This document shows positions 40,946 to 63,817 of a stretch of 64,000 nucleotides of DNA, one piece after another (the first letter of the stretch is position 1; each line of letters opens with the position of its first letter). This stretch comes from Candidatus Bathyarchaeota archaeon. GTDB lineage: Archaea; Thermoproteota; Bathyarchaeia; Bathyarchaeales; Bathyarchaeaceae. A model generated the notes under the pieces. It ran no database searches. It worked only from the letters and a program-made list of their open reading frames with translations, and was not told where the DNA came from. The translations under genes were made by a program, and so were the position numbers. The DNA lies in the NCBI GenBank assembly GCA_963772765.1, contig CAVYYP010000013.1:560308-624307 (forward strand), given 5' to 3'.

Positions 40946-42279
40946 CTATTGACTTCTTTTCATTTTTCTTCTATAAACTATAACTACTAATGTTGCAACC
41001 AAAAACAATGGCAGAATAATCCATGAAGGAAACTCTGGAACACCTTGTGCATTGGTTTTCACCACCCAAAAATCTTGATCTACTTTTTCATAATAATTTT
41101 CATCATTAAGTTCCCAAAATTCAACATAACCAGCCAAGGTATACCCACCATCAGCATTTTGGATAACAGAATTTGCTACCTCATGTTGTGAAGTCCCATA
41201 AAACCGATCCCACTCCTTGTCCCCAAAGGAATCAGTCTTAACTAACCAAAAATCAGGATTTCCATACCCAAACGACCGTGTATAACCCGCTAATGCAAAT
41301 CCCCCATCAGAAGACTCTATAATAGAAGAAACAAGATCATAAGCTTCTCCACCATACTTTTATCCCACTCCAAATTTCCAAATCCATCAGTCTTAATCAA
41401 CCAAAAGTCAGGTAAATCATTTTCAGGAGGATCCTCAGGACCGTTTGCTGAATATTTTAGGCAAGCCAACGCATAACCACCATCAGACGCTTGCACTAAA
41501 TCAACAGCACGATCACCATCTTCTCCGCCATATATTTGATCCCACTCTAAGTTTCCAGATGAATCAGTCTTGAGTAGCCAAACATAGGAATACCCAACCC
41601 CAGCAGAACGTTTGTGACCAGCCAATGCATAACCACCATCAGAAGTCTTTACCATACAATAAGCACCCTCCAAAGCTGAACTCCCATAGGTTTTCTCCCA
41701 CTCAACATTTCCAAAAGCATCTGTTTTAACTAACCAAACATCTGATTCCCCAGCCCCAAAAGAATATGTCACACCTGCTAACACAAATCCTCCATCAGAA
41801 CTCTGACATACAGAATATGCAGAATCTGCCCCTTCCCCACCATATGTCTGATTCCACTCAACAATACCATCACCATCAGTTTTAACTAACCAAAAATCCC
41901 TCAGTCCATTACCAAAAGACCAAGTATACCCAGCCAAAGCAAAACCTCCATCAGAAGTTACGATTATAGAATAACAAGCATCATAATCGCTTCCACCATA
42001 TGTCCTGTTCCACAACATATTACCCAGACTATCAGTCTTAATTAACCAAAAATCGTTTTTTCCCATACCAAAAGAATATGTATCTCCCGCTAATGCAAAT
42101 CCCCCGTCAGACGTAGCTACAACTGAATAAGCCCGATCATCATCGACTCCACCATATGACTGGGTCCATTCTACCCAAGGAACTACCTGAGCATGAACAA
42201 TATTAACACTAAAAGAAGCTAACAAAAGAAAGAGAATAAAAGCTGAAAATAATTTTTTGAACAAATTATTGTCTCCCAT
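40946..42279 (-). pseudogene. Secreted repeat (beta-propeller-like) protein with PEF-CTERM anchor; one frameshift as sequenced
   Basis: Signal peptide, then about 7 repeats of ..YGG..D.AYS...TSDGGFALAGYT.SFG.G..DFWLVKTD..GN.EW... After NLEWDK the repeat continues in another frame (YGGEEAYDLVSSIIESSDGGFALAGYTRSFGYGNPDFWLVKTD...). It runs to GVPEFPSWIILPLFLVATLVVIVYRRKMKRSQ*. The shift maps to the tttt run at 41358-41361. Confidence 0.7.
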
Positions 42280-43510
42280 ATTTCTGTAAATTGTGTTTGT
42301 AAATACTAATTACTCCAATAATCGCAACAAACATAACCAAAAAAAGAGCCAATGATGGAAACTCTGGAATGTCGCCTGTGTCTTCATAGTTGTTGTCAGC
42401 GACGGTGTTGTTGTTTGAATCGTTTCCCCAGATTTTGAGGTTTTCTTCCGTGTTTCCAAACAGGGTGTTTTCGGAGATGAAGGCGTCTCTGGAATCAAAA
42501 AAGTTGATGCCATTCTCTTGGTTGTTTGTTATGGTGTTTCCTATGATGATTGTATCTTCAGAGTTCCATGAATTGATACCATCAACGGTGTTCGCTGTTA
42601 TGTTGTTTTCTGTTATTGTATTGCCGACGCACATTTCGTATGGCGCAAAAAGTGTGATTCCGTACCCGTTGTTTTCTATGTGGTTTCGTGTTATCACCGA
42701 ATGGTTTGTGGCAATCACCAGTACACCTTGACTGTTGTCTGTGAGTGTTTGGTCTTTAACCGTTATGCCTGAACAGTTTACCAAAGCAACATATGCGGCT
42801 CCGGATGGCACAGTTTTATCGCGTTCGCTAACCCAGTAAATTATTGGTTTGCCGTCTATTGTGTTTGAGGCGTCAATGTCGTTGATGAAGTGCCTCATTT
42901 GAACGGATAGTTCGCAGTTTGTCCAGAAGCTGTGCACGTTGTTGATTAACTGGTTATCTCTGAACGTGTTGTTTGCGGACTGGGTCATGTAGATGCCATA
43001 AGTGTTGTTTTCAATTACGTTGCCTAAAACAGAGTTGCTATGCAAAAACATTGAGACCCTTATTCCGTGATCGCTGTCTGTTATGGTGTTTCCAGAAATG
43101 GTAACGTTCGTGTGACTATCCATGCTCCACCCAAAAGTAAGTGTAATGCCGCTGTGAAAATTTTTGATGTGTAAATTCCGTATTTCTACGTTGTATTTTT
43201 CTTGGAGCCAAACACCTGAAAGGTCTCCATTTCCTTGAAGCGTGTAACCCGCCCCATCAATGACGATGTCGTTGCGGAAAACCACGATTGTACCCTTAAC
43301 GTCTCCGGTAAAAGTGTAAATGTTGTCATTTCGCTGAATCAGGTCTGTTCCATTTACGTCCCCTTCATCAGTGATTTCGATGCTGTGAGTAGGAACTTGA
43401 GCAGGAATAAAATTTGCAGAGACCAAGCCGACAAACTGTAAAGCACTAAACAACGAAAGCGATAGAAGAAACAGAATAAATGAAGCCACAACTTTTTTCA
43501 TAGCCGCCAC
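42266..43510 (-). CDS. Secreted right-handed beta-helix (NosD/PbH1-repeat) protein with PEF-CTERM anchor
   Basis: 414 aa with a signal peptide and beta-helix repeats. The C-terminus reads GDIPEFPSLALFLVMFVAIIGVISIYKH. Paralog of 8281-9480. Confidence 0.8.
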   Translation of the reverse strand: MAAMKKVVASFILFLLSLSLFSALQFVGLVSANFIPAQVPTHSIEITDEGDVNGTDLIQRNDNIYTFTGDVKGTIVVFRNDIVIDGAGYTLQGNGDLSGVWLQEKYNVEIRNLHIKNFHSGITLTFGWSMDSHTNVTISGNTITDSDHGIRVSMFLHSNSVLGNVIENNTYGIYMTQSANNTFRDNQLINNVHSFWTNCELSVQMRHFINDIDASNTIDGKPIIYWVSERDKTVPSGAAYVALVNCSGITVKDQTLTDNSQGVLVIATNHSVITRNHIENNGYGITLFAPYEMCVGNTITENNITANTVDGINSWNSEDTIIIGNTITNNQENGINFFDSRDAFISENTLFGNTEENLKIWGNDSNNNTVADNNYEDTGDIPEFPSLALFLVMFVAIIGVISIYKHNLQKYGRQ

Positions 43511-44075: not shown

Positions 44076-45098
44076 TTAGCACCATTTTGTTAGTTGTTCT
44101 GGGATTTTGGATAGGGGCAGTATTTTGTCTGCTGTGCCTTCTTCTATGGCTGTTTTTGGCATGCCGAACACTGTGCAGGTTTCTTTGTTTTGTGCGATTG
44201 TTCTTCCGCCGTTGTCTTTGATGGCTCTCATGCCTTGGGCGCCGTCTCTTCCCATTCCCGTTAATATGACTCCGATGACATCTGACTGGTAAACTTCTGC
44301 TATGGTCCTCATCATTGGGTCAACTGCTGGTCTCACGCCATGTATTGTATGACCATCGTCGAGTTCTATTCTGCCATCTCCTGTGACTGTCATGTGGTAG
44401 CCTGCTGGAGCAATGAGTGCAAGTCCTTGTTTTATTTTGTCGTCTTGTTCGGCTTCTTTTACGTTAAAACTGCATTGCCTGTCTAGCCGTTTTGCGAACA
44501 GTTCTGTGAATCCAACTGGCATGTGCTGAACAATAAGTATTGGCGGTATGTTCTTTGGCAGATGACATAGAATTTCTTCGAGTGCGGGTGGTCCTCCTGT
44601 TGAGGCTCCTATTGTGATTATTTTGTCTGTGAATTCTCTTTTGATAGAAACCCGGGGACGGGCTGCTTCCTTGTGAGTGACCAGGTTGGCGTGTGATGCG
44701 GTTTTGATTTTTTCTACAAGCTCATTTCTCACCCTTTCTATGTCCAGCGAGATTTGTCCTGACGGTTTTTGTATGTAGTCTACGGCACCGAGTTTGAGTG
44801 CTTTGAATGTTATTTCTGCGCCCTCTTGAGTGGTTGCGCTGAGCATAATCACTGGCACGGGACTTTGTTTCATGATTTTTTGGAGTGTTGTCAATCCGTC
44901 CATGCGGGGCATGTTAACATCTAAGGTGATTACGTCTGGGCGAACTTCAGGAATTTTTTGCAACGCATTAAGTCCATCAAATGCAGTTCCGACAACAGTC
45001 AATTCTGGGTCAGAATCAATCATTTGTGTGACGATTTTTCGCATGAACGCCGAGTCGTCAACTACTAGGACCTTCAACCTGTTTTCCACCCACGTCAA
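44076..45098 (-). CDS. cheB: Chemotaxis methylesterase CheB (receiver + esterase)
   Basis: N-terminal receiver (VLVVDDSAFMR, ITLDVNMPRMDG). C-terminal esterase (GASTGGPPAL, HMPVGFT, GMGRDGA). Confidence 0.9.
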   Translation of the reverse strand: MTWVENRLKVLVVDDSAFMRKIVTQMIDSDPELTVVGTAFDGLNALQKIPEVRPDVITLDVNMPRMDGLTTLQKIMKQSPVPVIMLSATTQEGAEITFKALKLGAVDYIQKPSGQISLDIERVRNELVEKIKTASHANLVTHKEAARPRVSIKREFTDKIITIGASTGGPPALEEILCHLPKNIPPILIVQHMPVGFTELFAKRLDRQCSFNVKEAEQDDKIKQGLALIAPAGYHMTVTGDGRIELDDGHTIHGVRPAVDPMMRTIAEVYQSDVIGVILTGMGRDGAQGMRAIKDNGGRTIAQNKETCTVFGMPKTAIEEGTADKILPLSKIPEQLTKWC

Positions 45099-45184: not shown

Positions 45185-45685
45185 TTAGGCAGCGGCTATC
45201 TTAACAGCCGTAGGCTTGGATTTACTTGCTACTTTTTCTTGCTCTGACATGTCATCTTTGGATTCAGTGATTATCTTTGTAAGGTCAAGGATAACTATGA
45301 GTTTGTCTTCCTGTTTTCCGACGCCAACCACATATTTTTCCAATCTTTTGGTTACCTGAATGTGTCTTTCTATTTCTGTGCCCGCAAGCGTTGTTACTTC
45401 TGTTACTGTATCTACTACGACTCCTACTGCTGATTTGCCCATCTCGATGACAATGATTTTTTCGCCGCCCCCTTCCACCTCTTCAATGTTAAGGCGCTTT
45501 CTTAGATCCATTATTGTAATTATCTGTCCCCTGAGGTTCGTTACGCCTTCCACGTAGCTGGGCGCTCCTGGAACTGCTGTTACCGCTTGCACGTCTCTGA
45601 CTTCTCTTACTTGCTCCACTGGAACACCATAGTTGACGTCTCCCATCGTGAAATTGACTATCTGCATATTATCAGATGCTGCCAT
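45185..45685 (-). CDS. cheW: Coupling protein CheW (copy 1)
   Basis: 166 aa. NYGVPVEQVREV...APSYVEGVTNLRGQIITIMDLRKRL. Near-identical over its first ~120 aa to 47587-48087. Confidence 0.9.
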   Translation of the reverse strand: MAASDNMQIVNFTMGDVNYGVPVEQVREVRDVQAVTAVPGAPSYVEGVTNLRGQIITIMDLRKRLNIEEVEGGGEKIIVIEMGKSAVGVVVDTVTEVTTLAGTEIERHIQVTKRLEKYVVGVGKQEDKLIVILDLTKIITESKDDMSEQEKVASKSKPTAVKIAAA

Positions 45686-45694
45686 GGTAATCGC

Positions 45695-47443
45695 CTATTG
45701 CCACATGTCCTTGAAGGTTTTAGCTTCAGATGCAATCTTTTGTGCTAGCTCTATTACTTTGGCGACCTCTTCCTGAACCTTTGTAGATGCGACTGCAACC
45801 TCTTCTGTGGCTGCTGTTTGTTCTTCAATGCTTGCCGCCGTCTCTTCGGAAGCTGATGCAGACTCTTCTGAGAAGCTGGCTACCTGCTGGATTACTCCGC
45901 TCACTTCTTCTAGGTATTTTACGCTTTCCTGAACTGCTGTTTCCAGATTCTTGGTTACTCCCAAAATTTTGTCCATTGACGTTGCAAGGTTTTGTGACCC
46001 GTTCAGTGCCTCTGTTACGTTTATGTCTCCGTCTCTTGCTGCTTGGTCCGCGCTTTTGGACATTGTTCCTGCGCGCTCTCCAGCTTTTGTAATAGTATCA
46101 ATTGATTCTACAGAAGTTTTGGCTGCTGTTCCTGCTTGGCCTGCTAGCTGTTTTACTGCGTCTGCTACGACTGCGAATCCTCTTCCTGCCTCGCCTGCTC
46201 TTGCCGCTTCTATTGCCGCGTTCAGAGCCAGCATGTTAATTTGTCCGGCTATCTGCGAGATGTCGTCTGCTAGTCCTGCAACGTTTTTGACTGAAGAATT
46301 CACTTCGCCAATTGTTACTGACACGTCATTTGAGGCATCCTTGATTGCGCCTAATGACCTAAGTGCTTCTTTTCCGCTTTCACTTGTGTCTTTGGCTATT
46401 TTGTTTGATTCTGCTACTATCTTGTTTACTTCAATAGTGTTTGTGTTGACGTGGTTCATTCTTTGCATCAGAACTTGAACATTCTTTGCTGTTTCCTGAG
46501 CCAGTTTTGAGAGGTTCTGTGCTCCATCTGAAACATTCTGTGAAGCCGCCATTACCTGCTCCATCGTGTTGCTCAGTCTTTCAGATGCCTGCGAAGACTG
46601 TGCACCCATTGCGCCTATACTATCAGCGGTTGACAAAATCTGTTGCGATAGACCTGCAATGTTATCAGATACAGAAATGCTGACTTGAACCAAACTTTGA
46701 GTGCTCTCCAGCATTCCCTTAAGCTCAGAAATGTCTGTAACATATTCTACCGCACCGACTACCTTGCCTTCGCCATCAAGAAGAGGTGAACCCGTATACT
46801 TGATACTCATTTCACCATTAGCCATTGTCTCAGAAGTTGCTGGTTGCTTGGTTTTCATTGCAATAGCACAAGCACACTTGGAAGTTTTACAGTCATCAGT
46901 CTTAAACAGATCATAGCATTTTTTGCCAACAAGCTTGTCAGGAGTAGAACCTAACATGTTGGCGCCATACGTGTTGACGTAATTCACATTAAACTCCTTG
47001 TCAATGGACAAAACTGGTGTCTGAACAGCTTCAAGATACTGAACCTGTCTCTTGCTCTTCTCTGTCTCTTCTTTGAGCGATGTTATGTCAACAACGTATT
47101 CGATTGCTCCGTTAACTTTTCCCTCATTGTCATATGTTGGTGTGCCAGTCATCCAAAGATTCATGTTCTTTTTAGAAACAGTCTCCATTGAAGCCGTTTT
47201 CTTCTTTTTCATTGCCATTACACATGCACATTTGTCGGTTTTGCAGTTTGCAGTGTCAAACAGGTCATAACATTTTTTCTTACGGATAATTTTGCCTGGT
47301 GTAGAATTCAGCATTTTTGCGCCATATTCATTTATGTATGTGACATCAAAGTCTTGGTTGATTGCCACAACAGCTCCTTGGACACCTTGAAGATATTGAA
47401 GATATTTTGTCGCTGTCGTGTTTAGCATTTTGTATCTAGGCAT
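45695..47443 (-). CDS. Soluble methyl-accepting chemotaxis protein with two N-terminal Cys-motif PAS-like modules (MCP1)
   Basis: 582 aa with no hydrophobic TM segment. There are two ~115-aa modules, each with KKCYDLF.T..C.T.KCAC. The conserved signalling hairpin reads QINMLALNAAIEAARAGEAGRGFAVVADAVKQLA. Confidence 0.85.
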   Translation of the reverse strand: MPRYKMLNTTATKYLQYLQGVQGAVVAINQDFDVTYINEYGAKMLNSTPGKIIRKKKCYDLFDTANCKTDKCACVMAMKKKKTASMETVSKKNMNLWMTGTPTYDNEGKVNGAIEYVVDITSLKEETEKSKRQVQYLEAVQTPVLSIDKEFNVNYVNTYGANMLGSTPDKLVGKKCYDLFKTDDCKTSKCACAIAMKTKQPATSETMANGEMSIKYTGSPLLDGEGKVVGAVEYVTDISELKGMLESTQSLVQVSISVSDNIAGLSQQILSTADSIGAMGAQSSQASERLSNTMEQVMAASQNVSDGAQNLSKLAQETAKNVQVLMQRMNHVNTNTIEVNKIVAESNKIAKDTSESGKEALRSLGAIKDASNDVSVTIGEVNSSVKNVAGLADDISQIAGQINMLALNAAIEAARAGEAGRGFAVVADAVKQLAGQAGTAAKTSVESIDTITKAGERAGTMSKSADQAARDGDINVTEALNGSQNLATSMDKILGVTKNLETAVQESVKYLEEVSGVIQQVASFSEESASASEETAASIEEQTAATEEVAVASTKVQEEVAKVIELAQKIASEAKTFKDMWQ

Positions 47444-47586
47444 TATTCGGTTTTTCCTCCTTTATACCCAATAAAGCAAAAAAGAGGCACAAAAAAACTT
47501 TAGATTATGTGCATAGGTCTATCCGACACACAATCAAGAAAACAAAAAAGAAAGAGTGAAATCCTGTTTCACTCATTGTTTAGTGC

Positions 47587-48087
47587 TTATGCAACAGCTA
47601 TCTTTTCAACTGTCATAGGTCTTTTTGCTGGTATCTTTCCTTGTTCGGGAAGGTCTTCTTTGGAATTGTTGATTATTTTTGCCAAATCCAAGATGACTAT
47701 GAGTTTGTCTTCCTGTTTTCCAACGCCTACCACGTAGTTGTCTAGGGTCGTTGTGGTTTTCACGTAGCGGTCTATCTCTGTTCCAGGTATTGTTGTTACT
47801 TCTGTTACTGTGTCTACTACGACTCCTACTGCTGCTTTGCCCATCTCGATGACAATGATTTTTTCGCCGCCTCCTTCCATCTCTTCGATGTTAAGGCGTT
47901 TTCGTAGGTCCATTATTGTGATTATTTGTCCTCTTAGGTTTGTTACTCCTTCTACATAGCTGGGTGCTCCTGGGACTGCTGTTACCGCTTGCACGTCTCT
48001 GACTTCTCTTACTTGCTCCACTGGGACACCATAATTGACGTCTCCAATGGTGAAGTTGACTATCTGCACTTCATCAGTTACTACCAT
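47587..48087 (-). CDS. cheW: Coupling protein CheW (copy 2)
   Basis: 166 aa paralog of 45185-45685, with long stretches of near-identical nucleotide sequence. Confidence 0.9.
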   Translation of the reverse strand: MVVTDEVQIVNFTIGDVNYGVPVEQVREVRDVQAVTAVPGAPSYVEGVTNLRGQIITIMDLRKRLNIEEMEGGGEKIIVIEMGKAAVGVVVDTVTEVTTIPGTEIDRYVKTTTTLDNYVVGVGKQEDKLIVILDLAKIINNSKEDLPEQGKIPAKRPMTVEKIAVA

Positions 48088-49878
48088 TTTAGGTCAACTC
48101 TTTTAGGTTTTATAGCTGTACTTTGCTGAGTTCTTCTCGGAGCTTCTTGACGGCTTCTACAATCTGCTGAGACAACTGGGACTGCGTTAGCGCCCTCTTC
48201 CTGCACTTTCTTGGTGGCCTGCAACTTCTTCTGTGGCTGCGTCTGTTCCTCAATGCTTGCTGAAGCTTCCTCTGAGGCTGATGCAGACTCTTCTGAGAAG
48301 CTGGCTACCTGCTGGATTGCTCCATTTACTTCTTCAAGAGCTTCTACGCTCTGCTCAACAGTTGCGCCAAGGTTTTGGGTTACTCCCAAGATTTTTTCCA
48401 TAGATGAAGCCACTTGCTGAGAGCCGGTAACTGCCTCGCTGATCTTTAAGTCTCCTTCTTTAGCTGCTTGACCTGCATTCTTAGACATGCTGCCTGCCTG
48501 CTCGCCAGCTTTTGTTATGCCCTCAATAGATTCTACTGCAGTTTTGGCTGCTGTTCCTGCTTGGCCTGCTAGCTGTTTTACTGCGTCTGCTACGACTGCG
48601 AATCCTCTTCCTGCTTCTCCTGCTCTTGCTGCTTCTATTGCCGCGTTCAGAGCCAGCATGTTGACCTGTCCGGCTATCTGTGAGATGTCGTCTGCTAGTC
48701 CTGCAACGTTTTTGACTGAAGAGTTTACTTCGCCAATTGTGGTTTCCACATTTACTGACGCGCTTTTGATTTGGTTAAGTGATTCTAGTGCTTGTTTTCC
48801 GCCCTCACTGACGTTTTGTGCCAGTTTGTTTGAGCCTTCTACGATTTTGTTTACTTCGCCTGTGCCCTTGTTAACATCAGTCATTTTCTGCATAAGATTC
48901 TGAACATTTCTTGCAGTTTCCTGAGCCAGCTTTGAGAGGCTTTGTGCTCCATCTGAAACATTCTGTGATGCTGCTTGAACTTGCTGCATGCTGGTGCTTA
49001 GCCTGTCAGCTGCCTGTGCTGATTGGGTTCCCATTGCACCAATGTTTTGTGCTGCAACTAGCACCTTATCTGAAAGGCCTTCAACAGTTTGAGACACATC
49101 AGTGCTGGCTTTAACCACATTTTCTATGGTGAGCATCATTTCCTTAATTTTAGTAATATCTGCGACAAACTCTAGAGCACCAATAACTTTACCTGCCTCA
49201 TCAATCAATGGCGAACCAGTGTACTGAATGTGCATTTTGCCGTTTGATACTGTTTCTGAAGTTGCTGGCTTCTTTGTTTTCATTGCAATATCGCAAGCAC
49301 ACTTGGCTGTCTGACAGTCTGTAGTTTTGAACAGGTCGTAACATTTCTTTCCAACAATCTTATCGCTAGTTGTTCCAAGCATTTTTGCGCCAAAATCATT
49401 CATGAAAACGACATTGAAGTCGCAGTCAATCGCCACTACTGGCGTCTGGACTCCTTGAAGGTATTGGTACTTGTTGATTGCTTTTTCTAATTTCCTCTTT
49501 TACTTCTGTCAAGTCGGCAACATACTCTATTGCTCCTACGAGTTTGCCTGAACTATCAAGTAGTGGTGAGCCCGTGTAACGGATGTGCATTGTGCCGTTT
49601 GAGATTGTTTCAGAAGTTACTGCCTTTTTTGTCTTCATCGCGGTTGCACAGGCACATTTGGCTGTTCTACAGTCGCCTGTTTTGAATAAGTCATAGCATT
49701 TTTTGCCAACAAGTTTGTCGCTACTAGATTTCAGTAATTTTGCACCGAAATCGTTAATATAAGTAACGTCAAAGTCCTTGTTAATTGCCATGACTGGTGT
49801 TTGGACTCCTTCCAGATATTGGAGGTAATCATTTGATTGTTCTATATTTTGTATTGATTTTGCCATTTCATCACTCAC
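48081..49878 (-). pseudogene. Second soluble Cys-motif PAS-like MCP (MCP2); frame disrupted as sequenced
   Basis: Same architecture as MCP1. After module 1 (..RKSNQQV) the frame breaks at gg 49466-49467. Removing one base restores QYLQGVQTPVVAIDCDFN. Near the 3' end there is a compensated -1/-2 shift (48213-48250). A further shift at ggg 48178-48180, if corrected, gives QLSQQIVEAVKKLREELSKVQL* with the stop at 48110-48112. Confidence 0.8.
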
Positions 49879-50104: not shown

Positions 50105-50935
50105 TCATTTACACTTTCTATAGACCCGACAGTTAGGATTGACATCAATAAACTTCTTGCTTGCATCGCCCCCAACAAACTCTGTCTTACCACTTATCAA
50201 ATAACCGCCAGCCCTCAAAGAATCATAAAAATGCCCATAAATCTTCTGCTGAATCTCTCTTGAAAAATAGATCATAACATTCCTGCACAAAATCAAATCC
50301 AAATTACGCCTAATCGGAGGCGTCATCAAATCCTGCTCCTCAAAATGAATAATCTTCTTAACAAAAGACTTCACCCGGTAAACCTCATCTTCAAAATCAA
50401 AATACTTGCCAAGCAACTTCTCATCAACACCTTGAATCCCACGCACATCATATTCTCCACTTTCAGCTTTCGCTAATGCACTCTTGTCAAGGTCCGACGC
50501 ATAAATAGTGATTTTACTATTTTCAATCTGTTGTTTTGCAACTTCATGTATCAAAATAGCCAGAGAATAAGGCTCTTCGCCAGTGGCGCATCCTGCACTC
50601 CAGATTCTAATCCAGCTTTTCGAAGATGACAATAGTTCAGGCAGGAGCGTCTCCTTCAGAAACTGGTACACATCGGGGTCTCTGAAAAATTTTGTATAAT
50701 TGATGGTGATGTCGTTGACGAGAAGATCAAACTCGTTAGGGTTTGCCTGCAAGTACTGACCATACTCGGCATATGATTGTGTTTTTGTCACCATTAACCG
50801 CACTTTAAGGCGCCTTTTCAAGTAAGACTCGCGGTAATAGTCAAAGTTGATATTGGTACCGTCATGCATCACTTTTTTCAGTTTTTCAAAATCAGCATTA
50901 TCATTGTCTTCAGTGGCAAGTGTCATATTCATCAA
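50105..50935 (-). CDS. cheR: Chemotaxis methyltransferase CheR
   Basis: 276 aa. YTKFFRDP, IWSAGCATGEEPYSLAI, ILCRNVMIYF. Confidence 0.9.
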   Translation of the reverse strand: MMNMTLATEDNDNADFEKLKKVMHDGTNINFDYYRESYLKRRLKVRLMVTKTQSYAEYGQYLQANPNEFDLLVNDITINYTKFFRDPDVYQFLKETLLPELLSSSKSWIRIWSAGCATGEEPYSLAILIHEVAKQQIENSKITIYASDLDKSALAKAESGEYDVRGIQGVDEKLLGKYFDFEDEVYRVKSFVKKIIHFEEQDLMTPPIRRNLDLILCRNVMIYFSREIQQKIYGHFYDSLRAGGYLISGKTEFVGGDASKKFIDVNPNCRVYRKCK

Positions 50936-51045: not shown

Positions 51046-51690
51046 TCAGCAGAGCCATTCACGACTTTTATTGACCAACAACTGCTTCATCTCTTCGCTG
51101 GGAAACACCAAAATTGTTCCCGCAGCCTTGCTGCTACTTCGTTTAAAGCAACCATCAAAGATCAAAGCAACATCTGAAACTAAAGCCTGCTTTACAAGGA
51201 AACTGTCAAGTATCGCATCAAATGAACCCCTGACAAGTTGAGGCGGCATCGGAACAAGTGATATGCCCGTAAAGTCCGAGATTGCAGTAAGAAAGCCGCC
51301 TATCATGATGTTTCCGAGTTCTTCTATTGCTGAGTTTTCCATTTCTGGGTCCAGTTCCTCTGTTGGAGTCATAGTCATCATCGAAGCTATATTCTTGGAT
51401 TCTTCTAGCTCAAAAAGCAACAAAATGTCGCAGTCAGTATCGCCTGTCAACTGCATATGAATTACTGCCATAATCTGATCATGTTTGTCAAATATTTTAG
51501 GAACCAGATGCGGCTCTGAAAGATGCAATCTGGGCACTTCAACCACAATTTTCTCATTGAGCATCTCTGAGAGAGCTGTAGTTGCATTTCCGGCTCCAAT
51601 ATTTCCCAGTTCTATCAGTATATCGAGGTCTTGTTCATCTTTGTTGTTGCACTCATTTTTTGCAGTTGATTGAACTGCTTTTTCAGCCAT
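51046..51690 (-). CDS. cheC: CheC-family CheY-P phosphatase (copy 2)
   Basis: ELGNIGAGNATTALSEML plus a second ELGNIMIGGFLTA motif. 214 aa. Confidence 0.8.
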   Translation of the reverse strand: MAEKAVQSTAKNECNNKDEQDLDILIELGNIGAGNATTALSEMLNEKIVVEVPRLHLSEPHLVPKIFDKHDQIMAVIHMQLTGDTDCDILLLFELEESKNIASMMTMTPTEELDPEMENSAIEELGNIMIGGFLTAISDFTGISLVPMPPQLVRGSFDAILDSFLVKQALVSDVALIFDGCFKRSSSKAAGTILVFPSEEMKQLLVNKSREWLC

Positions 51691-51692
51691 TT

Positions 51693-52319
51693 TTATCCCA
51701 CCCAGTCCTTTGCTTTGTCTGTTAACACGTTTTGCAATTCTTTACTTGGGAACACCATTAGAATGCCGCTGATGTTGCCGTCGACACGTTTAAAATAGGT
51801 GTCAAATATTATCGCCATGTCCGAAGCAAGAGTTTGTTTTAGAAGAAAACTGGTAAGTATTGCATCAAAGGAGCTGGTTGCTCTTTCTGGAGGATTAGGC
51901 ACCAGATTCACGCCAGTAAAATCAGAGAGTGCTGCCAGGAACGAGCCTATCATGATGTTTCCGAGTTCTTCTATTGCTGAGTTTTCCATTTCTGGGTCCA
52001 GTTCCTCTGTTGGAGTCATAGTCATCATCGAAGCTATCTTTTTTGCTTCTTCGTGTTCAAAGAGCAGCAGAATGTCACATTCTGCCTCTCCTCGCAATTG
52101 CATATAAATCGCTGTTGTCTGAACATCATGTTTATTATAGAATTCGGGAACAAGATGAGGCTCCACTGTGTGAATCTTTGGCACCTCTATAGAAATCTGT
52201 TCCTGAAAAATTTCTGACAGCGACGTAGCGGCATTTCCTGCACCTATGCTTCCCAGTTCAAGAAATATTTCCAAATCTATACCTTGATTTTGTTTCTCTT
52301 TTGTTATACTCTCTGTCAT
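51693..52319 (-). CDS. cheC: CheC-family CheY-P phosphatase (copy 1)
   Basis: ELGSIGAGNAATSLSEIF plus ELGNIMIGSFLAA. 208 aa, in tandem with copy 2. Confidence 0.8.
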   Translation of the reverse strand: MTESITKEKQNQGIDLEIFLELGSIGAGNAATSLSEIFQEQISIEVPKIHTVEPHLVPEFYNKHDVQTTAIYMQLRGEAECDILLLFEHEEAKKIASMMTMTPTEELDPEMENSAIEELGNIMIGSFLAALSDFTGVNLVPNPPERATSSFDAILTSFLLKQTLASDMAIIFDTYFKRVDGNISGILMVFPSKELQNVLTDKAKDWVG

Positions 52320-52834
52320 AGTTTTATAACCTCCCCATTTCCATTTCGAACAAAAACTGAACCATCAGTAATATTGAAGACAACTTTTCTGCCATAAGTT
52401 CCCTTAACATCTTCAGCCAACAGCTTTATTCCCTTGATATCCAACGCTTCCTTGACAGCTTCAACATTTTTTTCGCCAATGTTAAGCGAATTAGCCTTCA
52501 GGCTCGGAAACATGTTCGCTCCACCAGCAATTTTTGCTGTAAGACGAGACCTGCTCTTTGCGATTTTTTCCAGGTTTTCTGTCAAGGCTGGAACTGCAGT
52601 GTCTGCATATTTTGATGGAATAGAATTCCGTTGAGTTATCTTGGAACTGGGCAGCATTATATGAGCCAGTCCACCACACTTGTTTAAGGAGTCGTGGATA
52701 CAAATTGCGACACACGACCCAACATTTGTTACCAAGACAACAGGTCGATTTTCGACTTTCATTTCAGCCATGTCGACCCGTAATTCTTCTAATTTTTGGG
52801 TTGTCGGTTTTTGGATGGTTGGAGCCGCAGACAT
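52316..52834 (-). CDS. cheD: Chemoreceptor glutamine deamidase CheD
   Basis: VGSCVAICIHD...GGLAHIMLPSS. ATG 52834 gives 172 aa. The track start (TTG 52954) adds 40 non-conserved residues. Confidence 0.8.
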   Translation of the reverse strand: MSAAPTIQKPTTQKLEELRVDMAEMKVENRPVVLVTNVGSCVAICIHDSLNKCGGLAHIMLPSSKITQRNSIPSKYADTAVPALTENLEKIAKSRSRLTAKIAGGANMFPSLKANSLNIGEKNVEAVKEALDIKGIKLLAEDVKGTYGRKVVFNITDGSVFVRNGNGEVIKL

Positions 52835-52964
52835 GTGAGATGTGAAGTGCGACTTTGCTGTTAGTGATGAATCCAGACTGCCTTGTGGCGATTTGGTCCA
52901 ATCCGCGCCTAACGTGTTAATTGGTACCAACAGTTGGCAAAGTCGTGTCCACAACTGGTTAACC

Positions 52965-53333
52965 TCAGCAATATTTGGACAAGACTTCTAGAACTTTTTG
53001 GGGTTTGAATGGTTTTGTGACGAAGTCTTTTGCTCCTGCTTTTAGGGCTTCAACGATTAGGCTTTGTTGTCCCATGGAGCTGCACATTACACATTTGGCT
53101 GCCGTGTCTTCTGACATGATTTGTTTTAGTGCCTCGATTCCGTCTTTGGCCATTGCTCCAGCGGGCATTACTATGTCCATCAGAACAAGGTCTGGTTTGT
53201 GCTGGCGATACATTACTATCGCTTCATCTCCGGACCCTGCTTCAGCAATTACGTCGTGTCCTGCTTGGAGTACGATTCGTTTTAGCACGTTTCTCATAAA
53301 TGAGGCATCGTCGGCTATTAGAACTCCTGCCAT
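52965..53333 (-). CDS. cheY: Chemotaxis response regulator CheY
   Basis: 122 aa single receiver. VLIADDASFMR, LVLMDIVMP, CSSMG, FVTKPF. Confidence 0.85.
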   Translation of the reverse strand: MAGVLIADDASFMRNVLKRIVLQAGHDVIAEAGSGDEAIVMYRQHKPDLVLMDIVMPAGAMAKDGIEALKQIMSEDTAAKCVMCSSMGQQSLIVEALKAGAKDFVTKPFKPQKVLEVLSKYC

Positions 53334-53996: not shown

Positions 53997-55973
53997 TTAT
54001 TCGCTTCCGTTGTTTTCTTGGTGGTTTATGAAATGAGGTAAGTCCAAGACCGGAATCACTCGACCGTTTCCGAGAATCGTGAAGCCGCTGTAACCTTTGA
54101 CGTTTATCATTGTTTCCGCCAACGGTTTTATCATTATTTCTTGCTGGTCAATAACAAAGTCTATAGCAAGTCCAACCTTTTTGTCCTCGTTGTTTCCGTG
54201 AGTTACTAATACTTCAAGATGTTCGGGTTCATCTGTTCCTTCCAGGCTGATCAGTTCATGCAGGTGTATGAGCGGCAGTACGCGTCCACGGACAAATTGC
54301 CCTGAATCCTCCCAGAGCCTTAATATTTTCCTTGTTGACACGAACAATCTCTGAAACCATGCTTGTTGGAATCGCAAACGTCTGATATTCCTTAACAAGA
54401 AGAGACGTAACAATCGCTAATGTGAGTGGCAATCTAAGGCTAATCTTTGTGCCCAACCCAACCTGAGTGTCCATATTCACTGTGCCCCCAAGAGCGGCTG
54501 TCTTCGTCTTTACCACATCCATTCCCACGCCCCTGCCACTAGTCTCTGTGATTGACTTTGAAGTGGACATTCCAGGCAGAAAAATCGGTTTGTGAGCTGT
54601 TCTTTGCTCATCTTTTCTGCTTCAGCTTCTGATAAGAAGCCTTTTTTCATTGCAGATTGTTTGACTTTTTCTGGATCAATACCTGTGCCATCATCTGAAA
54701 CTTCAATGACAACATGTTCGCCTTCACGTTTTGCAACAAGATTTATTGTTCCTGTAGGGTCTTTGCCAGACTCTTTTCGTTCTTGGGGCAGTTCTATTCC
54801 ATGGTCAACGCTGTTTCTGATTATATGTATAAGCGGCTGACCGATTTCATCCAATACTGTTCGGTCAACTTCTATTTCTCTTCCTTTAACTACCATGTTG
54901 ATTTTTTTTCCATTCTTTCTTGCCAAATCTCTTACAAGTCTAGGAAACCTATCAAAAACCTGACTAACAGGAACCATTCTGATCTGCATAGCCAAGTCCT
55001 GAAGGTCTGTTGTGAGCCTGTCAATATTCCTTGTTAAACGTCTTAAAGCATCATTTTTTGTCACAGAAGTGGTCTGGAGCAACGCAATCTTGTTTATCAC
55101 AAGTTCTCCAGTCAAATTCATCAATTCATCTAGCTGCTCAAAATGAACTCTAACAGTTTGAGACGTTCGAGCATCAACCGCAGGCTTTGACTCCTTTGCA
55201 GTCTTGACTTTTTGTATATCCTTCTTGTCATTAGATTCCAAGTCAAACGTTTCAACCTGAACTTTTTCTATTTCACAAACCGAACTTGTACAACCCTCTA
55301 TCTCTTTTACATCTAACTTTGTTACAAAAATAATCTTGAAATCTGCACTTTTCTCAATCTCTTCACTCTGCACTTTCGGGCTTGTTTTAGCTATCTTCCC
55401 TTTCTTCTCCAGATTTTCTACAACCATATTCGCTCTTAACTGCTTGAAAGCACAGTCTTCACTAAACTTGGCAACAACAAGAAAACAGTTTTTTCCCGAC
55501 TTTATGGCTTTTTTGATTTTTTGTTTTTCTTTTTCGCTAAGACTTGGTGTGTTTGTTTGTTTTTGTGTGGTCTCTGATGTTGTTTTTGGGTCTGTGTTTT
55601 GTGTTTTTTTGGAAAACCCGTGTAGCCTTTGGATGAATTGTGTGGTTTCGATTTGTTCATCTATGCCGTTTTGTATGTTTTCTATTCTGCCTGTGAGGGC
55701 GTCGATGCATTCGAGTTGGACGTCGATTAAGTCGCTTGTGACTTGGCCGCCTTTTCGTAAGCCATCAAATACGTCCTCCATTGCGTGAGAGAGGTCTGAG
55801 AGGTCTTTGAATCCCATCATTCCTGATGAGCCTTTGAGTGTGTGGGCTGATCTAAAGATGTTGTTTAGTGCGTCTGTGTTGTTTGGTTCTTTTTCTAAAA
55901 TCAGGAGGGATTGGGTCAATGTTTCTATGTGCTCTAGGGCTTCTTCTATGAATGCTTCTTTGTATTGTTCCAT
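53997..55973 (-). pseudogene. cheA: Chemotaxis histidine kinase CheA; split over three frames as sequenced
   Basis: Hpt (FRSAHTLKGSSGMMGF), dimerisation, and HATPase (HIIRNSVDHGIE, DDGTGID) domains. After ..KEQLTN the frame shifts to FLPGMSTSKSITETSGRGVGMDVV, at or next to the A5 run 54580-54584. After ..NKENIKAL it shifts again to EDSGQFVRGRVLPLIHLHEL (CheW-like domain), at ccc 54311-54313. ATG 55973. Confidence 0.85.
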
Positions 55974-55988
55974 ATCCAAAGACAATCT

Positions 55989-56264: not shown

Positions 56265-56456
56265 CTATGTAATGGTTATACGAAAAGTGGGTGGTTAGTA
56301 AATGCCTCAAATTAGATACAGAGTTGAAGCGAAACAAAACAGAAGTGACGGTCTTCTGCAGGAAACTCAACTTTGTAAAATTATCTCCCTCATTTTATCT
56401 CCCTCTCCACCCACTTCCCAAAAAAACCCAAATTACCTAAGGAGGTGGGAAGTATA
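56265..56456. promoter_or_regulatory. Divergent control region between the che operon and the filament locus
   Basis: 192 nt separate two divergent gene sets. Direct repeat ttatctccct x2 (56381-56390, 56395-56404). Inverted pair aagtgggtgg (56291-56300) / ccacccactt (56408-56417). Strong SD ggaggtg at 56441-56447. Confidence 0.4.
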
Positions 56457-57035
56457 ATGAGAAGAATACTGAAAAATCGTTTAGCTTTGAGCACAGTAGT
56501 TACAACGCTGATCATCCTGGTAATCTCAGTACTGCTCGCGGGTGTCGTTTCATACTTTGCTATCAACGTCACCAGCACACGAGTACAAGAAGAATCAGTA
56601 CACATCACAAAACATCACGTATGGCACAGTGGATCAAACAGGGCACTTGCCAGTTTGATGATCATCAACACTGGTGGTAGGGACCTAGTTATCGACAAGA
56701 TAAGCGTCCGTGGACAGGAATGTGACTGGAACTCTACAACAAATGATAAGTTCGTCAACTTCTGCCGAACAACAAACACAATATCCTCAGACTTAGATTA
56801 TGTTGCCAGTTTTGCACGAGATGGTACAAACACTATAGTAGACATAGGTGGTGCTGATTACAACTTTACAGTTGCAGAAGACGATCTGATCCTCAAATCC
56901 GGTTGGACTATGCTAATCTACATCGAAAATCCAGACAGCATCTCAATCAACGACATCGGTTTGACCGTATCTATCGAAATCTTCACTGCTCAAGCAATGT
57001 ATTATAGGGAATCAAACGTCCAAGCAATAACATAA
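56457..57035 (+). CDS. Type IV pilin/archaellin-like filament subunit 1 (class III signal peptide-like N-terminus)
   Basis: 192 aa from ATG 56457. MRRILKNRLALSTVVTTLIILVISVLLAGVVSYFAINV is a basic stretch followed by a long hydrophobic helix. The remainder is Ser/Thr/Asn-rich and looks like a beta-rich domain. Confidence 0.7.
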   Translation: MRRILKNRLALSTVVTTLIILVISVLLAGVVSYFAINVTSTRVQEESVHITKHHVWHSGSNRALASLMIINTGGRDLVIDKISVRGQECDWNSTTNDKFVNFCRTTNTISSDLDYVASFARDGTNTIVDIGGADYNFTVAEDDLILKSGWTMLIYIENPDSISINDIGLTVSIEIFTAQAMYYRESNVQAIT

Positions 57036-57044
57036 CCTTTCCCC

Positions 57045-57072
57045 TTCCTTTTTTCTGGGGAACCATTTTTTC
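57045..57072 (+). terminator. Oligo-T tracts after filament subunit 1 (archaeal-type terminator)
   Basis: T6 at 57049-57054 and T6 at 57066-57071, within 40 nt of the stop. Confidence 0.4.
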
Positions 57073-57164
57073 TATTTTATTTTCAGTCATACAAAGGTGT
57101 AGTTTTTTGTTACGCACAAATGGTCATATCATTTTTTGACGTAGCACGTTTTTGGAGATAAAAA

Positions 57165-57714
57165 ATGAGGGACTTACGAAGAAACCGTTTGGCTTTGAGC
57201 ACAGTAGTTACAACGCTGATCATACTAGTAGTTTCAGGTACTGCTCGCGGGTGTTGTTTCATACTTTGCTATCAACGTCACCAGCACACGAGTACAAGAA
57301 GAGGCAGTTCACATAGCAAAGCAGCACGTATGGCACAATGGCACTTCCCAAGCACAATCAGCATTCTTAATGATCAACACTGGCGGTAGAGACCTAGTCA
57401 TCGACAAGATAAGTGTCCGAGGACAGGAATCAGACTGGAGCACAGTATTTTACAACGTAACAGATACATCCATTTCAGCTGACTTGCCATACAATGCAAC
57501 ACTGGAAGATGGAGGAGAAATCACAATAGGCACTCCATTCACTTTCACCGAAGCTACAGATGATATCACAGTTCGATCAGGATACAGCATTATAATATAC
57601 ATCCTGAACCCAGACAGCATCTCAGTGAACGACATCGGCCTAACCGTCGGCATGACCGTTCACACATCGCAGGCAATGTACTACAAAGAAACCAACGTCG
57701 AAGCCACAGAATAA
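57165..57714 (+). pseudogene. Type IV pilin/archaellin-like filament subunit 2; one frameshift as sequenced
   Basis: MRDLRRNRLALSTVVTTLIILVVS then goes out of frame. Subunit 1 has tctcagtactgctcgcgggtg where subunit 2 has tttcaggtactgctcgcgggtg. Subunit 2 therefore carries an extra g at 57237-57238. Removing it joins to ..VLLAGVVSYFAINVTSTRVQEEAVHIAKQHVWH...MINTGGRDLVIDKISVRGQE. Confidence 0.7.
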
Positions 57715-57872
57715 ACTCGTCCTATTGGATGGCAACATCCAATCTCCCTTTTCTTTTTTTGATTTTGATATCGAATATGTAGTTAGAATCTACGTACAAA
57801 CCATCTTATCCCTTCACGCAAAAACATTGTTTCTTCAAGAAGTATACGGCAAACAGGAGAAAACCCTAGAGA

Positions 57873-58766
57873 ATGACCCACCTAAACCAGAACACTTCCA
57901 ATAAGCAAAAGATGGGATGGAACCAACAAATGATAACAAAACATCTTAGACAACGAACCAAAAAGTTCCGCGTGTCAAAGAAGGCTCTAGCACTTCCAAT
58001 AACCTTTCTTATGCTGTTCGCTTCCCTGTTTATAGTAATCTCGCTTACTTACTACTTTGCAGTTTCCAAAGTCAACGCTAACAGCCAGATGCTCAAAATC
58101 TCAGCCGCAAAACAGAACATGAACACAGTAGAACAAACAATAGACTACATTCTTTGGCAGCCAGGATCTTCCAAAAACTGCGAATTCAACGACTGCGGCG
58201 GAACACTGATAACAGAACCAACCGCAAACCTGCTGACAATAAACATCACAGACAACACATTCTCAGAGGTTATATTCAATTCATCAATAGGCGGAGTCAC
58301 ATATGAGTTGCCTTACTCACAATCTGCTGACACTGGATTATACCTGAAAGGAACAAGCAAAGTTGTCGAAAACAAAAGCGGCGCAGTAATGCCACAGCTG
58401 TACATAGAAAGTGGCGAAGAACATCCAGAAATTCTTTTGCGGTACCGTCCAATGGTCTCCTCTGTAACTGGAGGAACCGAAAATGACAAGCCCATCAACT
58501 ATGTGCGAATATACGTTGTGAACCTGAATTCCTCACAGAACATTTACCTTATGGGAAAAATTCCCGTAAAAATTTCTTGCGAAAGCACCCAAACAGTGGT
58601 CAGCAGCTATAACTTGTCATATTCTCCTTCAATCTTGACCACTCAGGTAACATTAGATGGACGTGAAGCACAAGTATCATCAGCCCTTTCAAGTAATGCA
58701 AACGGTGCAATAATCAACGTAGAACTGGTAATCTGTAACGTCCAAATAGAACGGGGGCTACGATAA
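57873..58766 (+). CDS. Pilin-like/ArlG-ArlF-class accessory protein with N-terminal anchor
   Basis: RVSKKALALPITFLMLFASLFIVISL resembles the N-terminus of the two subunits (..RLALSTVV..). There is a ~230-aa extracytoplasmic part. Which in-frame Met is the start is uncertain. Confidence 0.45.
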   Translation: MTHLNQNTSNKQKMGWNQQMITKHLRQRTKKFRVSKKALALPITFLMLFASLFIVISLTYYFAVSKVNANSQMLKISAAKQNMNTVEQTIDYILWQPGSSKNCEFNDCGGTLITEPTANLLTINITDNTFSEVIFNSSIGGVTYELPYSQSADTGLYLKGTSKVVENKSGAVMPQLYIESGEEHPEILLRYRPMVSSVTGGTENDKPINYVRIYVVNLNSSQNIYLMGKIPVKISCESTQTVVSSYNLSYSPSILTTQVTLDGREAQVSSALSSNANGAIINVELVICNVQIERGLR

Positions 58767-58769
58767 ACA

Positions 58770-59222
58770 ATGCCCTCCATAATTCCCAGCTACGTCTACA
58801 CCTTTTTTGCCCTAAGCATAGTAGGCACCCTACTGATTTGCATGTTCAGCGGATTTGCCGTATCCGTGAAACAAGACGTTGAGGTAGAACAGCTCAAAAA
58901 CTTACTCGAACACGTGGCTGCAGAAAGCTGCGAGATCATCTCAACAACCCAGACCAACAACTCAACAGTAACAATCAGAGTCCAAATGCCTACGCGGCTT
59001 GGAGAAAAACAGTACTGGATACAATTCAGAAACGACACCGCACACGCCTGGGTTGAAGGCGGATTAGGCGCTGTCCCAGTCGAAACTAGCCTAGTAATAT
59101 ATGTGCCCGGACTGGTAGCCGCTTCTGGGCTATATCATAGTGGTTACGGTTTTGCAGAACTAGAATGCCAGCTGCAGGGAACCACAGTTTGTTTGAACTT
59201 ATCGGAGGCTTCATCATCATGA
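58770..59222 (+). CDS. Small N-terminally anchored accessory protein (ArlF/ArlG-class candidate)
   Basis: 150 aa. MPSIIPSYVYTFFALSIVGTLLICMF helix. ATGA overlap with the ATPase start. Confidence 0.4.
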   Translation: MPSIIPSYVYTFFALSIVGTLLICMFSGFAVSVKQDVEVEQLKNLLEHVAAESCEIISTTQTNNSTVTIRVQMPTRLGEKQYWIQFRNDTAHAWVEGGLGAVPVETSLVIYVPGLVAASGLYHSGYGFAELECQLQGTTVCLNLSEASSS

Positions 59223-62322: not shown

Positions 62323-62345
62323 AAAAACTGTTAGGTGACGTAAGG

Positions 62346-63392: not shown

Positions 63393-63814
63393 GCTTCAGA
63401 GCCGACAAGCGTGGACAGATACGCATGATAGAAGCCTTCTTTGCATCCCTTCTCATACTGTCAACAGTAGCTCTGATACCATCACAGTTTGGATCTGAAC
63501 AAACACATTACACCAAACACTACTCAGAAGCAACACAAGCCCTAGTCTCGCTTGATACCAACGGACTGCTATCAGGCCTGATAGCAGAAAGTAACTGGGT
63601 GTCACTACAAAACTCAATCCAAACAGCACTGCCCGTAAGCCTATGGTTCAACTTCACAGTCTTCAACGAGGACATGAACATACTAAATGACGTCACAATA
63701 TCTAATGGTGGTCCAGTCAGCGAAGAAGTTGTTGCTGTTAACTATGTTTGTGTGTCCTCAAATGGTAACTATGCTGTATACTTGGTTCGGTTGCAGGTGG
63801 CGGAGGCAAGCTAA
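63389..63814 (+). CDS. Minor pilin-like protein with class III signal peptide
   Basis: TTG 63389 (TTGA overlap with the upstream stop) gives MSFRADKRGQIRMIEAFFASLLILSTVALI. This is a basic n-region, G-Q, then a hydrophobic helix with Glu at +5 if cleaved after Q. Confidence 0.5.
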   Translation: MSFRADKRGQIRMIEAFFASLLILSTVALIPSQFGSEQTHYTKHYSEATQALVSLDTNGLLSGLIAESNWVSLQNSIQTALPVSLWFNFTVFNEDMNILNDVTISNGGPVSEEVVAVNYVCVSSNGNYAVYLVRLQVAEAS

Positions 63815-63817
63815 CTG

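Follow-up and report, generated by a model that had tools for sequence, protein, structure and literature searches.

We analyzed a window of 64,000 nucleotides from a Candidatus Bathyarchaeota archaeon (GenBank assembly GCA_963772765.1, contig CAVYYP010000013.1, positions 560,308 to 624,307; coordinates below count from the first letter of the window), whose minus strand carries a complete chemotaxis operon. Its two chemoreceptor genes, MCP1 and MCP2 (for methyl-accepting chemotaxis protein, MCP), encode four copies of a PAS module with a cysteine motif, C-x8-C-x4-C-x-C, of which the first three cysteines are a hallmark of a family found almost only in chemoreceptors. We favor the reading, with a probability of about one half, that these modules are iron-sulfur PAS sensors of redox state or O2, with a cluster held by three cysteines and a further ligand (Cys3+X), and that they drive taxis. 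The data show the PAS fold, where the triad lies and that it is invariant, the soluble receptor architecture without HAMP, the place of the genes in a che operon and how the family is distributed; which cofactor is bound, what it responds to and in which direction it signals are what we infer here, with a characterized regulator, OrpR, as the precedent.

The intact receptor is MCP1, an open reading frame (ORF) of 582 aa with PAS-PAS-MCPsignal architecture (45695..47443, minus strand). Pfam matched PAS_9 (3.4e-22, 79 bits), PAS_4 (1e-17, 65 bits) and MCPsignal (4.2e-27) in it. Module 1 (residues ~13-130, 47054..47407, minus strand), delimited by module alignment and matched by Pfam in two stretches, contains the cysteine motif CYDLFDTANCKTDKCAC (47222..47272, minus strand; Cys58/67/72/74). 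Module 2 (residues 131-247, 46703..47053, minus strand), which was modeled by AlphaFold2 and compared by Foldseek, contains CYDLFKTDDCKTSKCAC (46868..46918, minus strand; Cys176/185/190/192). MCP1 has eight cysteines in total, all of them in these two motifs. The remaining residues, 248-582 (45695..46702, minus strand), form a coiled-coil signaling domain recognized by the Pfam MCPsignal match at residues 372-523 and by matches to the signature of its hairpin tip, LALNAAIEAARAGEAGRGFAVVA, which reads LALNAAIEAAR...RGFAVVA. No transmembrane segment was found in the receptors, the maximum 19-residue Kyte-Doolittle average being 0.94-1.07 (0.94 in MCP1) against 2.6 in a membrane-anchored neighbor. 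A HAMP-coupled receptor was likewise rejected, as the Pfam scan of the receptors gave no match to HAMP or HAMP_2 even at E<=1. Module 2 ends in a DIS motif, similar to the DIT motif of other PAS domains, that leads into the signaling helix, and an unbroken helix directly after it, from residue 239 and spanning 239-331, was predicted with low confidence. This prediction comes from a single-sequence AlphaFold2 run on residues 121-420 of MCP1, in which the PAS part was poor (predicted local distance difference test, pLDDT, <50) and which was used for the helix only. By its sequence, MCP1 is classed as a cytoplasmic-class MCP. The proposal of a first-pass annotation, made from the DNA letters, that PAS modules are the sole input of a receptor with neither transmembrane segment nor HAMP is borne out by Pfam and hydropathy for this intact protein. 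Full-length MCP1 orthologues are 82% identical in a Bathyarchaeia metagenome-assembled genome (MAG; locus L002) and 73% identical in Ca. Bathyarchaeum tardum (L004). The precomputed Pfam list of a protein identical to MCP1 (P0159) includes PF28544.1, that of a 98% identical protein (P0160) does not, and the match is probably marginal.

The modules are true PAS domains (Pfam clan CL0183). In agreement with the annotation, each receptor has two modules; the four are homologous, align over ~118 residues with 52-71% pairwise identity and each score above the gathering threshold of PAS_9 or PAS_4 (E 1e-9 to 1e-22). All four have the cysteines at the same C-x8-C-x4-C-x-C spacing, as first noted, in the context CYDLF.T..C.T..CAC. 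In a six-frame translation of the window, the triad form CYDLF.T..C.T..C occurs at these four places only, and the other matches to the bare cysteine spacing are unrelated sequences, many of which cross stop codons. The AlphaFold2 model of MCP1 module 2 has a mean pLDDT of 84 and canonical PAS topology, with strands at 14-18 and 22-26, helices at 28-33, 38-41, 46-50 and 61-68, and strands at 72-78, 82-92 and 98-107 (model numbering). Foldseek placed it among the heme-PAS of DosP, LOV domains, the flavin adenine dinucleotide (FAD) PAS of NifL and CitA, with a probability of 1.00 and TM-scores of 0.6-0.7; identities are about 12-21% among the matches listed. The profile and structure searches proposed with the first description of the modules thus both return the PAS fold and no dedicated family. 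Sequence and profile searches of the PDB gave weak, generic PAS matches only, Aer2 PAS structures among them, and no structure of a subfamily with the cysteine triad.

In the model, Cys1 (Cys46) opens the helix 46-50, Cys2 (Cys55) lies in the following loop, and Cys3 and Cys4 (Cys60/62) are at the N-terminus of the helix 61-68. An hhalign comparison with oat LOV2 aligns Cys1 with the E-alpha cysteine that forms the flavin adduct, and Cys3/4 with the beginning of F-alpha. The model and this alignment together indicate that the cysteines line the classical cofactor pocket of PAS domains. A LOV or flavin PAS was itself rejected, since the context of Cys1 is GKKCYDLF and not GxNCRFLQ and the flavin-contacting Asn, Arg and Gln are absent. 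A c-type heme PAS of the kind of Geobacter GSU0582/0935 and DcrA was rejected as well, as there is no CxxCH in MCP1 or MCP2.

Conservation among four paralogues alone proves little, and it is the invariance of the triad at the family level that is decisive. The six closest modules were used in an exhaustive HMMER search of 1.84 billion cluster representatives (clusters at 50% identity), which retrieved 15,005 proteins at E<1e-3 and 158 at E<1e-30. A word-index search was nearly blind to so short a module, giving 2 matches with one module and 8 with a profile of 27 sequences. We delimited 250 modules of more than 50 bits in the best 150 proteins of the HMMER search. These modules are ~40-50% identical, and Cys1 is present in 250/250, Cys2 in 250/250 and Cys3 in 249/250, the lone exception being cut by the end of the protein. 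The second spacing is x4 in 249 of the 250 and in all four modules of the window. Other near-invariant positions are a Lys before Cys1, a Thr at +6, a Thr at Cys2+2 and a C-terminal D-I-T motif. Cys1+2 is Asp or Glu in 175/250 modules (70%) and Asp in all four of the window. Two giant proteins, P0008 (4799 aa) and P0054 (3417 aa), contain 29 and 19 weak PAS-like stretches without the triad, and ranked high through their summed scores only.

Triad modules have a median score of 105 bits against 19 (maximum 70) for PAS stretches that lack the triad. This gap indicates that the triad marks a discrete subfamily that has no close relatives devoid of the cysteines. In 116 full-length homologous receptors, the motifs account for 88% of the cysteines, PAS modules and triads are equal in number in 95 and differ by one in the others, and 115 of the 116 have no transmembrane-like segment. 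These data bear on the possibility that the cysteines are structural only, with an unrelated organic ligand or none in the pocket, so that MCP1 would be an ordinary cytoplasmic chemoreceptor for a metabolite. The ligands of most PAS domains are unknown according to a 2023 census (PMC10468136), which leaves room for such a ligand. However, the triad sits on the very elements that line the pocket, relatives without it are distant, and cysteine is otherwise avoided in these proteins, and we regard this explanation as the least probable of those considered.

The fourth cysteine behaves differently. It is present, as C-x-C, in 146/250 modules (58%), and Val, Thr or Leu stands in its place in the others. 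The four-cysteine motif that had been taken as invariant therefore holds across the family for C-x8-C-x4-C, but not for its last residue, which is absent from 42% of modules. Modules without it have a cysteine five residues before Cys1 (alignment column 43) in 46% of cases, against 23% (p=2e-4), and are also enriched for cysteine at column 74. The residue before Cys2 is His in 57% of modules and Asp in 34%. A fourth cysteine that varies in this way is, judging from the alignment, the signature of a Cys3+X site and not of a fixed Cys4 site.

Such a site might also bind Zn(II) or another thiophilic metal, with the triad and a fourth Cys, His or Asp ligand clamping the E-alpha/F-alpha lid or acting as an oxidant switch. 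The three invariant cysteines, the His or Asp beside Cys2 (together about 92% of the 250 modules) and the frequent fourth cysteine would fit Cys3His or Cys4 coordination, and the matches in the PDB include WalK PAS structures (4mn5 and 4mn6), which we take to be those of a cytoplasmic PAS that binds zinc. However, structural zinc sites normally keep all four ligands, whereas here the fourth is not fixed and 24 of the 104 three-cysteine modules have no extra cysteine at all. In addition, the nearest motif with experimental data, that of OrpR, holds an iron-sulfur cluster, and a bias towards anaerobic hosts, described below, is unexpected for a structural zinc site. We consider zinc unlikely, yet the strongest of the alternatives for the bound centre. 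A zinc-thiolate switch would follow the same logic as the CZB domain of TlpD, and its output to the MCP would still be a redox or oxidant signal.

Neither Pfam nor NCBIfam has a dedicated model for a cysteine-triad PAS. Literature searches with motif strings (CX8CX4CXC variants and CYDLFKT) and with keywords for iron-sulfur, PAS and chemoreceptors returned no description of the family. The initial impression that the pattern belongs to no described PAS subfamily agrees with this lack of an entry in Pfam, NCBIfam or the PDB. In the passages searched of the 2023 census cited above, which covers ~3 million PAS domains, the NreB type, with nine domains, is the only iron-sulfur PAS named, and NreB falls in heme-PAS cluster 3 (PMC10468136).

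By motif, and as compared with its published description, the closest characterized relative appears to be OrpR (DVU2106) of Desulfovibrio vulgaris Hildenborough. Its PAS domain has conserved C52, C61 and C65 (C-x8-C-x3-C) and an Asp/Glu at position 54 (Fievet et al. 2021, PMC8359166). The cluster held by this domain is a [4Fe-4S]2+ centre, which mild oxidants convert to [3Fe-4S]1+ and O2 destroys, and redox sensing is lost in the triple Cys-to-Ser mutant (PMC8359166). Both are cytoplasmic PAS domains of anaerobes with the same C-x8-C first spacing, an acidic residue at Cys1+2 and a Cys3+X arrangement. They differ in the second spacing (x3 in OrpR, x4 here), in the absence from OrpR of the C-x-C fourth cysteine, and in architecture, a single module on a sigma54 AAA+ activator as opposed to tandem modules on an MCP. 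The loci fetched in our survey contained no sigma54 protein of the OrpR type with a cysteine PAS. We do not file the module in the OrpR family; by analogy, we propose that it may work like OrpR. Because a nearly identical cysteine triad with a [4Fe-4S] cluster has already been described in OrpR, the chemistry has a precedent.

Other systems are more distant. NreB, the O2 sensor kinase of Staphylococcus carnosus, resembles what is proposed for the modules in having a PAS pocket with an O2-labile [4Fe-4S]2+ cluster bound by cysteines, but its spacing is C-x2-C-x11-C-x2-C, its output is a histidine kinase and its host is a facultative aerobe. We rejected an NreB-type domain, as no module has a C-x2-C pair. 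Aer (FAD), Aer2 (heme) and the globin-coupled HemAT report redox state or O2 to an MCP signaling domain through a cofactor-loaded sensor, as is proposed here. They do so with flavin or heme, without a cysteine cluster and without tandem identical modules, and Aer and Aer2 use a HAMP domain, which the receptor described here does not have. CZB proteins such as TlpD and DgcZ include soluble chemoreceptors with a cysteine-containing metal site for oxidant or energy sensing; the CZB domain is, however, a four-helix bundle with a His/Cys zinc site located C-terminal to the signaling domain. It is not a PAS, and Pfam detected none in the receptors. The sigma54 nitrogenase regulators VnfA and AnfA have an N-terminal C-x-C-x4-C motif that is reported to bind an iron-sulfur cluster in the sensor. 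This is also a short cysteine triad with C-x-C and x4 spacing, but the order is reversed, and it belongs to a GAF-domain protein with no sequence relation to the modules.

The distribution of the module was examined in one genome per GTDB species with the peptide patterns [GK]KKCYD[LI]F and QY[LI][EQ][GA]VQ[TG][PA], which gave 230 loci. The closest are in Bathyarchaeia MAGs, with module identities of 72% in L002 and 59% in the complete genome of Ca. Bathyarchaeum tardum. The remaining loci are mostly in Desulfobulbales and Desulfobacterales, including the cultured Desulfofustis glycolicus, Desulfopila aestuarii and Desulfosarcina variabilis, and there are scattered loci in Thermoplasmata, Gastranaerophilales, Chloroflexota, Myxococcota, Verrucomicrobiota and Halochromatium. 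The hosts are overwhelmingly anaerobes. In the fetched loci, nearly every module belongs to a tandem array (1-8 copies) that precedes an MCP signaling domain. The MCP signaling signature was present in 71 of the 94 ORFs with a PAS module; most of the others either run off the end of their contig or belong to different PAS proteins, in which the triad is missing. Among ten representatives that the regular expression had classed as non-MCP, Pfam found MCPsignal in nine, and the tenth, with 4HB_MCP and HAMP domains, appears truncated at its C-terminus. Several of these ten sit in the membrane and combine a HAMP domain with a 4HB, Cache or PilJ sensor, so that HAMP or HAMP_2 is present in some bacterial members. 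The family thus occurs almost only in chemoreceptors, which public annotations call just 'methyl-accepting chemotaxis protein' or 'PAS domain-containing protein'. Several Desulfobulbales and Desulfobacterales loci (L015, L018, L024, L029, L065 and L067, with others) encode soluble MCPs of ~900-1280 aa in which 5-8 tandem modules of four-cysteine and three-cysteine types are mixed. The commonest mixed pattern, among the representatives of the exhaustive search, is a four-cysteine module followed by a three-cysteine one.

The sulfidic habitats of the hosts would also suit a metal-free thiol switch, in which a disulfide, trisulfide or persulfide forms in response to oxidants or to reactive sulfur species, such as the polysulfide of sulfidic sediments. 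Disulfides are used by the PAS domain of ArcB. FisR senses reactive sulfur species through three cysteines, as cited in PMC12754779. On the other hand, three invariant cysteines within 15 residues, with neighboring His/Asp and Asp/Glu, resemble a coordination sphere, and a spacing so strict across ~40% identity implies a fixed geometry around a bound centre. A thiol switch without metal seems improbable to us. Under either the zinc-thiolate or the thiol-switch explanation, a role in sensing redox state or oxidants survives.

A role in sensing metal, redox state or O2, first suggested from the sequence of the window, is the best supported one, given a triad located in the cofactor pocket, invariant across the family and found mostly in anaerobic hosts. 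The same suggestion had the modules feeding the che pathway, and this part may not hold in the present genome, where MCP2 and CheA are frameshifted. Several observations weigh against an iron-sulfur sensor at work here. The pLDDT of the model falls to ~79 in the cysteine loop, and the spacing is one residue off that of OrpR. Iron-sulfur ligands are not usually arranged as a C-x-C pair at the start of a helix, and sequence alone cannot tell iron-sulfur from zinc. Some hosts, namely Halochromatium and MAGs of Myxococcota and Alphaproteobacteria, are not obviously strict anaerobes. Finally, with the frameshifts in MCP2 and CheA, the pathway may be inactive in this archaeon.

Under the iron-sulfur reading, the pocket of each module would hold a Cys3(+X) site, most likely with a redox- and O2-labile [4Fe-4S] cluster of the OrpR kind or a related iron-sulfur centre. 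Cys1 would be provided by E-alpha at the position of the photoactive cysteine of LOV domains, Cys2 by the E-alpha/F-alpha loop and Cys3 by the N-terminus of F-alpha. In the modules of the window the fourth ligand would be the C-x-C cysteine; elsewhere it may be the cysteine five residues before Cys1, a cysteine further downstream, the Asp/Glu at Cys1+2 or the His/Asp that precedes Cys2. Were the cluster to be oxidized, converted or lost, the lid made up of E-alpha and F-alpha would be rearranged together with the beta-sheet of the PAS domain, and the signal may pass through the D-I-T/S motif and the unbroken helix to the MCP four-helix bundle, without HAMP. CheA activity would then be altered through CheW, with adaptation by CheR, CheB, CheC and CheD, and the receptor would steer the cell along gradients of redox potential or O2, a form of redox taxis in anaerobes.

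MCP2 was first read as a single receptor ORF, but in the assembly it is broken by four small indels into two ORFs with a garbled C-terminus. Fragment A (49426..49878, minus strand; ORF and Pfam) contains PAS module 3 with the motif CYDLFKTGDCRTAKCAC at 49648-49698. Fragment B (48081..49436, minus strand; ORF and Pfam) contains module 4 and the signaling domain; module 4 as a whole spans ~49137-49466 (minus strand), with the motif CYDLFKTTDCQTAKCAC at 49293-49343. Both fragments score above the PAS gathering threshold in Pfam. DNA alignment with an intact orthologue from a Ca. Bathyarchaeum MAG (L002 3037-4845) and with MCP1 located the indels at ~49467 (+1), ~48240 (-1), ~48218 (-2) and ~48180 (+1). 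The insertion at ~49467 falls between modules 3 and 4, and fragment A runs into it; the -1 and -2 indels together restore the frame after garbling 7 residues. In agreement, tblastn of the intact orthologue onto MCP2 needs three reading frames. MCP2 is either a pseudogene or affected by assembly errors.

Two further genes of the region are interrupted. CheA has a compensating pair of frameshifts that puts ~54300-54570, part of the ATP-binding domain, out of frame, as seen by comparison in three frames with the intact CheA of locus L001; the CheA sequence of the shifted stretch is perfectly conserved once the other frame is read. The second of two pilin paralogues next to the operon (~57150-57714) has one frameshift just after the signal-peptide/hydrophobic N-terminus. 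The first 44 kb of the window are densely packed with long intact ORFs, from which it follows that the lesions are concentrated in the motility region. For the same reason, pervasive sequencing error is not a favored cause. The lesions would be due either to decay of very recent date or to local errors in the assembly.

It is a distinct possibility, though not the one we would bet on, that the chemosensory system is decaying in this genome and that the output of the modules no longer reaches a working pathway, which would be compatible with any of the chemistries above. The four indels in MCP2, the two in CheA and the one in the pilin paralogue, beside a flank of intact ORFs, are what decay would produce. 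Moreover, the MCP2-type orthologue of a metagenome contig (L001 8339-9547) has an in-frame TAA in place of the Tyr after Cys1 in module 2 and an Asn in place of Cys3 in the same module, a sign that decay of the second receptor paralogue may not be confined to one lineage. However, MCP1, both CheW, CheB, CheR, CheC, CheD and CheY are intact, and the genes are intact in relatives. In addition, translation of the out-of-frame segments in the correct frame still gives perfectly conserved protein, so the lesions must be very recent or else errors of assembly or polishing, perhaps arising from paralogous repeats. Provided that the lesions of CheA and MCP2 are genuine, the pathway does not work in this archaeon. 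The intact orthologues of relatives show a system that is, by all appearances, functional in the lineage.

Tentatively, we propose that the cysteine-triad PAS may constitute an iron-sulfur sensor family dedicated to chemoreceptors, in which tandem arrays of 1-8 modules mix Cys4 and Cys3+X sites. If so, these would be the first chemoreceptors based on iron-sulfur clusters. How strict anaerobes position themselves in redox gradients is poorly understood, and the known receptors for aerotaxis and energy taxis use flavin, heme, hemerythrin or zinc. An iron-sulfur PAS wired straight to the MCP bundle would be a new sensing chemistry for chemotaxis, and the arrays could work as a graded gauge of redox potential or O2, possibly with an intramolecular electron relay, that sets the swimming of anaerobes. 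The single characterized case of OrpR would be extended to a family of at least 158 clusters (50% identity, E<1e-30), which would cover the one receptor that the Bathyarchaeum-type che system encodes within its operon and the large conserved tandem-array receptor of many Desulfobulbales genomes. For the Bathyarchaeia, a major uncultured lineage of sediments, it would indicate the most probable stimulus of their conserved che operon. Candidates that can be tested would be available in culturable sulfate reducers, namely Desulfofustis glycolicus, Desulfopila aestuarii, Desulfosarcina variabilis and Desulfobulbus rhabdoformis. The signature C-[YFH]-[DENS]-x6-C-x-T-x2-C would allow a dedicated profile to be built, one able to set these domains apart from the undifferentiated PAS_4/PAS_9 annotation that they have at present.

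The che operon, with gene identities confirmed by Pfam, is transcribed in the order CheA, a 138-aa ORF, CheY, CheD, two CheC, CheR, MCP2, CheW2, MCP1, CheW1 and CheB, all on the minus strand. CheA, with its frameshifts, occupies 53997..55985, the Hpt, P2, H-kinase_dim and HATPase_c domains being found by Pfam on 54510-55985 and the CheW domain on 53997-54413. The 138-aa ORF after it had no Pfam match. Next are CheY (52965..53333; Response_reg, 1.2e-26), which is 90-96% identical to its Bathyarchaeia orthologues, CheD (52316..52954; CheD, 2e-32), two CheC-like phosphatases (51693-52319 and 51046-51690; CheC/CheX) and the methyltransferase CheR (50105..50935; CheR, 2.4e-53). CheW2 (47587..48087; CheW, 1e-33) lies downstream of MCP2 and CheW1 (45185..45685; CheW, 8.2e-34) downstream of MCP1, followed by the methylesterase CheB (44076..45098; CheB_methylest, 7e-68, and Response_reg). 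The MCP-CheW unit is a tandem duplication (45185-49878), and the DNA identity between the two units is 47-94% in windows of 150 nucleotides. It is highest at the MCP hairpin tip and in the N-terminal half of CheW, peaks that could be due to gene conversion or to strong constraint. The operon is syntenic across Bathyarchaeia relatives, the window, L002 and Ca. Bathyarchaeum tardum (L004) being among those compared. In a collection of plasmids, tblastn found no match.

Beside the operon, on the plus strand (56445-64000), there are genes for Pilin_N proteins, a T2SSE ATPase, a T2SSF membrane protein, DUF7266 and unknowns. This locus looks like a type IV pilus system and does not look like a recognizable archaellum; no match to archaellin, ArlH or CheF was obtained among the ORFs scanned (27.6-64 kb of the window). 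Its two tandem archaeal type IV pilin paralogues are at 56445-57035 and ~57150-57714, the second being the frameshifted copy mentioned above. On the CheB side of the operon, ~0.6 kb past CheB, the ORF 42266-43510 (minus strand) encodes a secreted or anchored protein with a NosD-like right-handed beta-helix, a signal at its N-terminus and a transmembrane anchor at its C-terminus.

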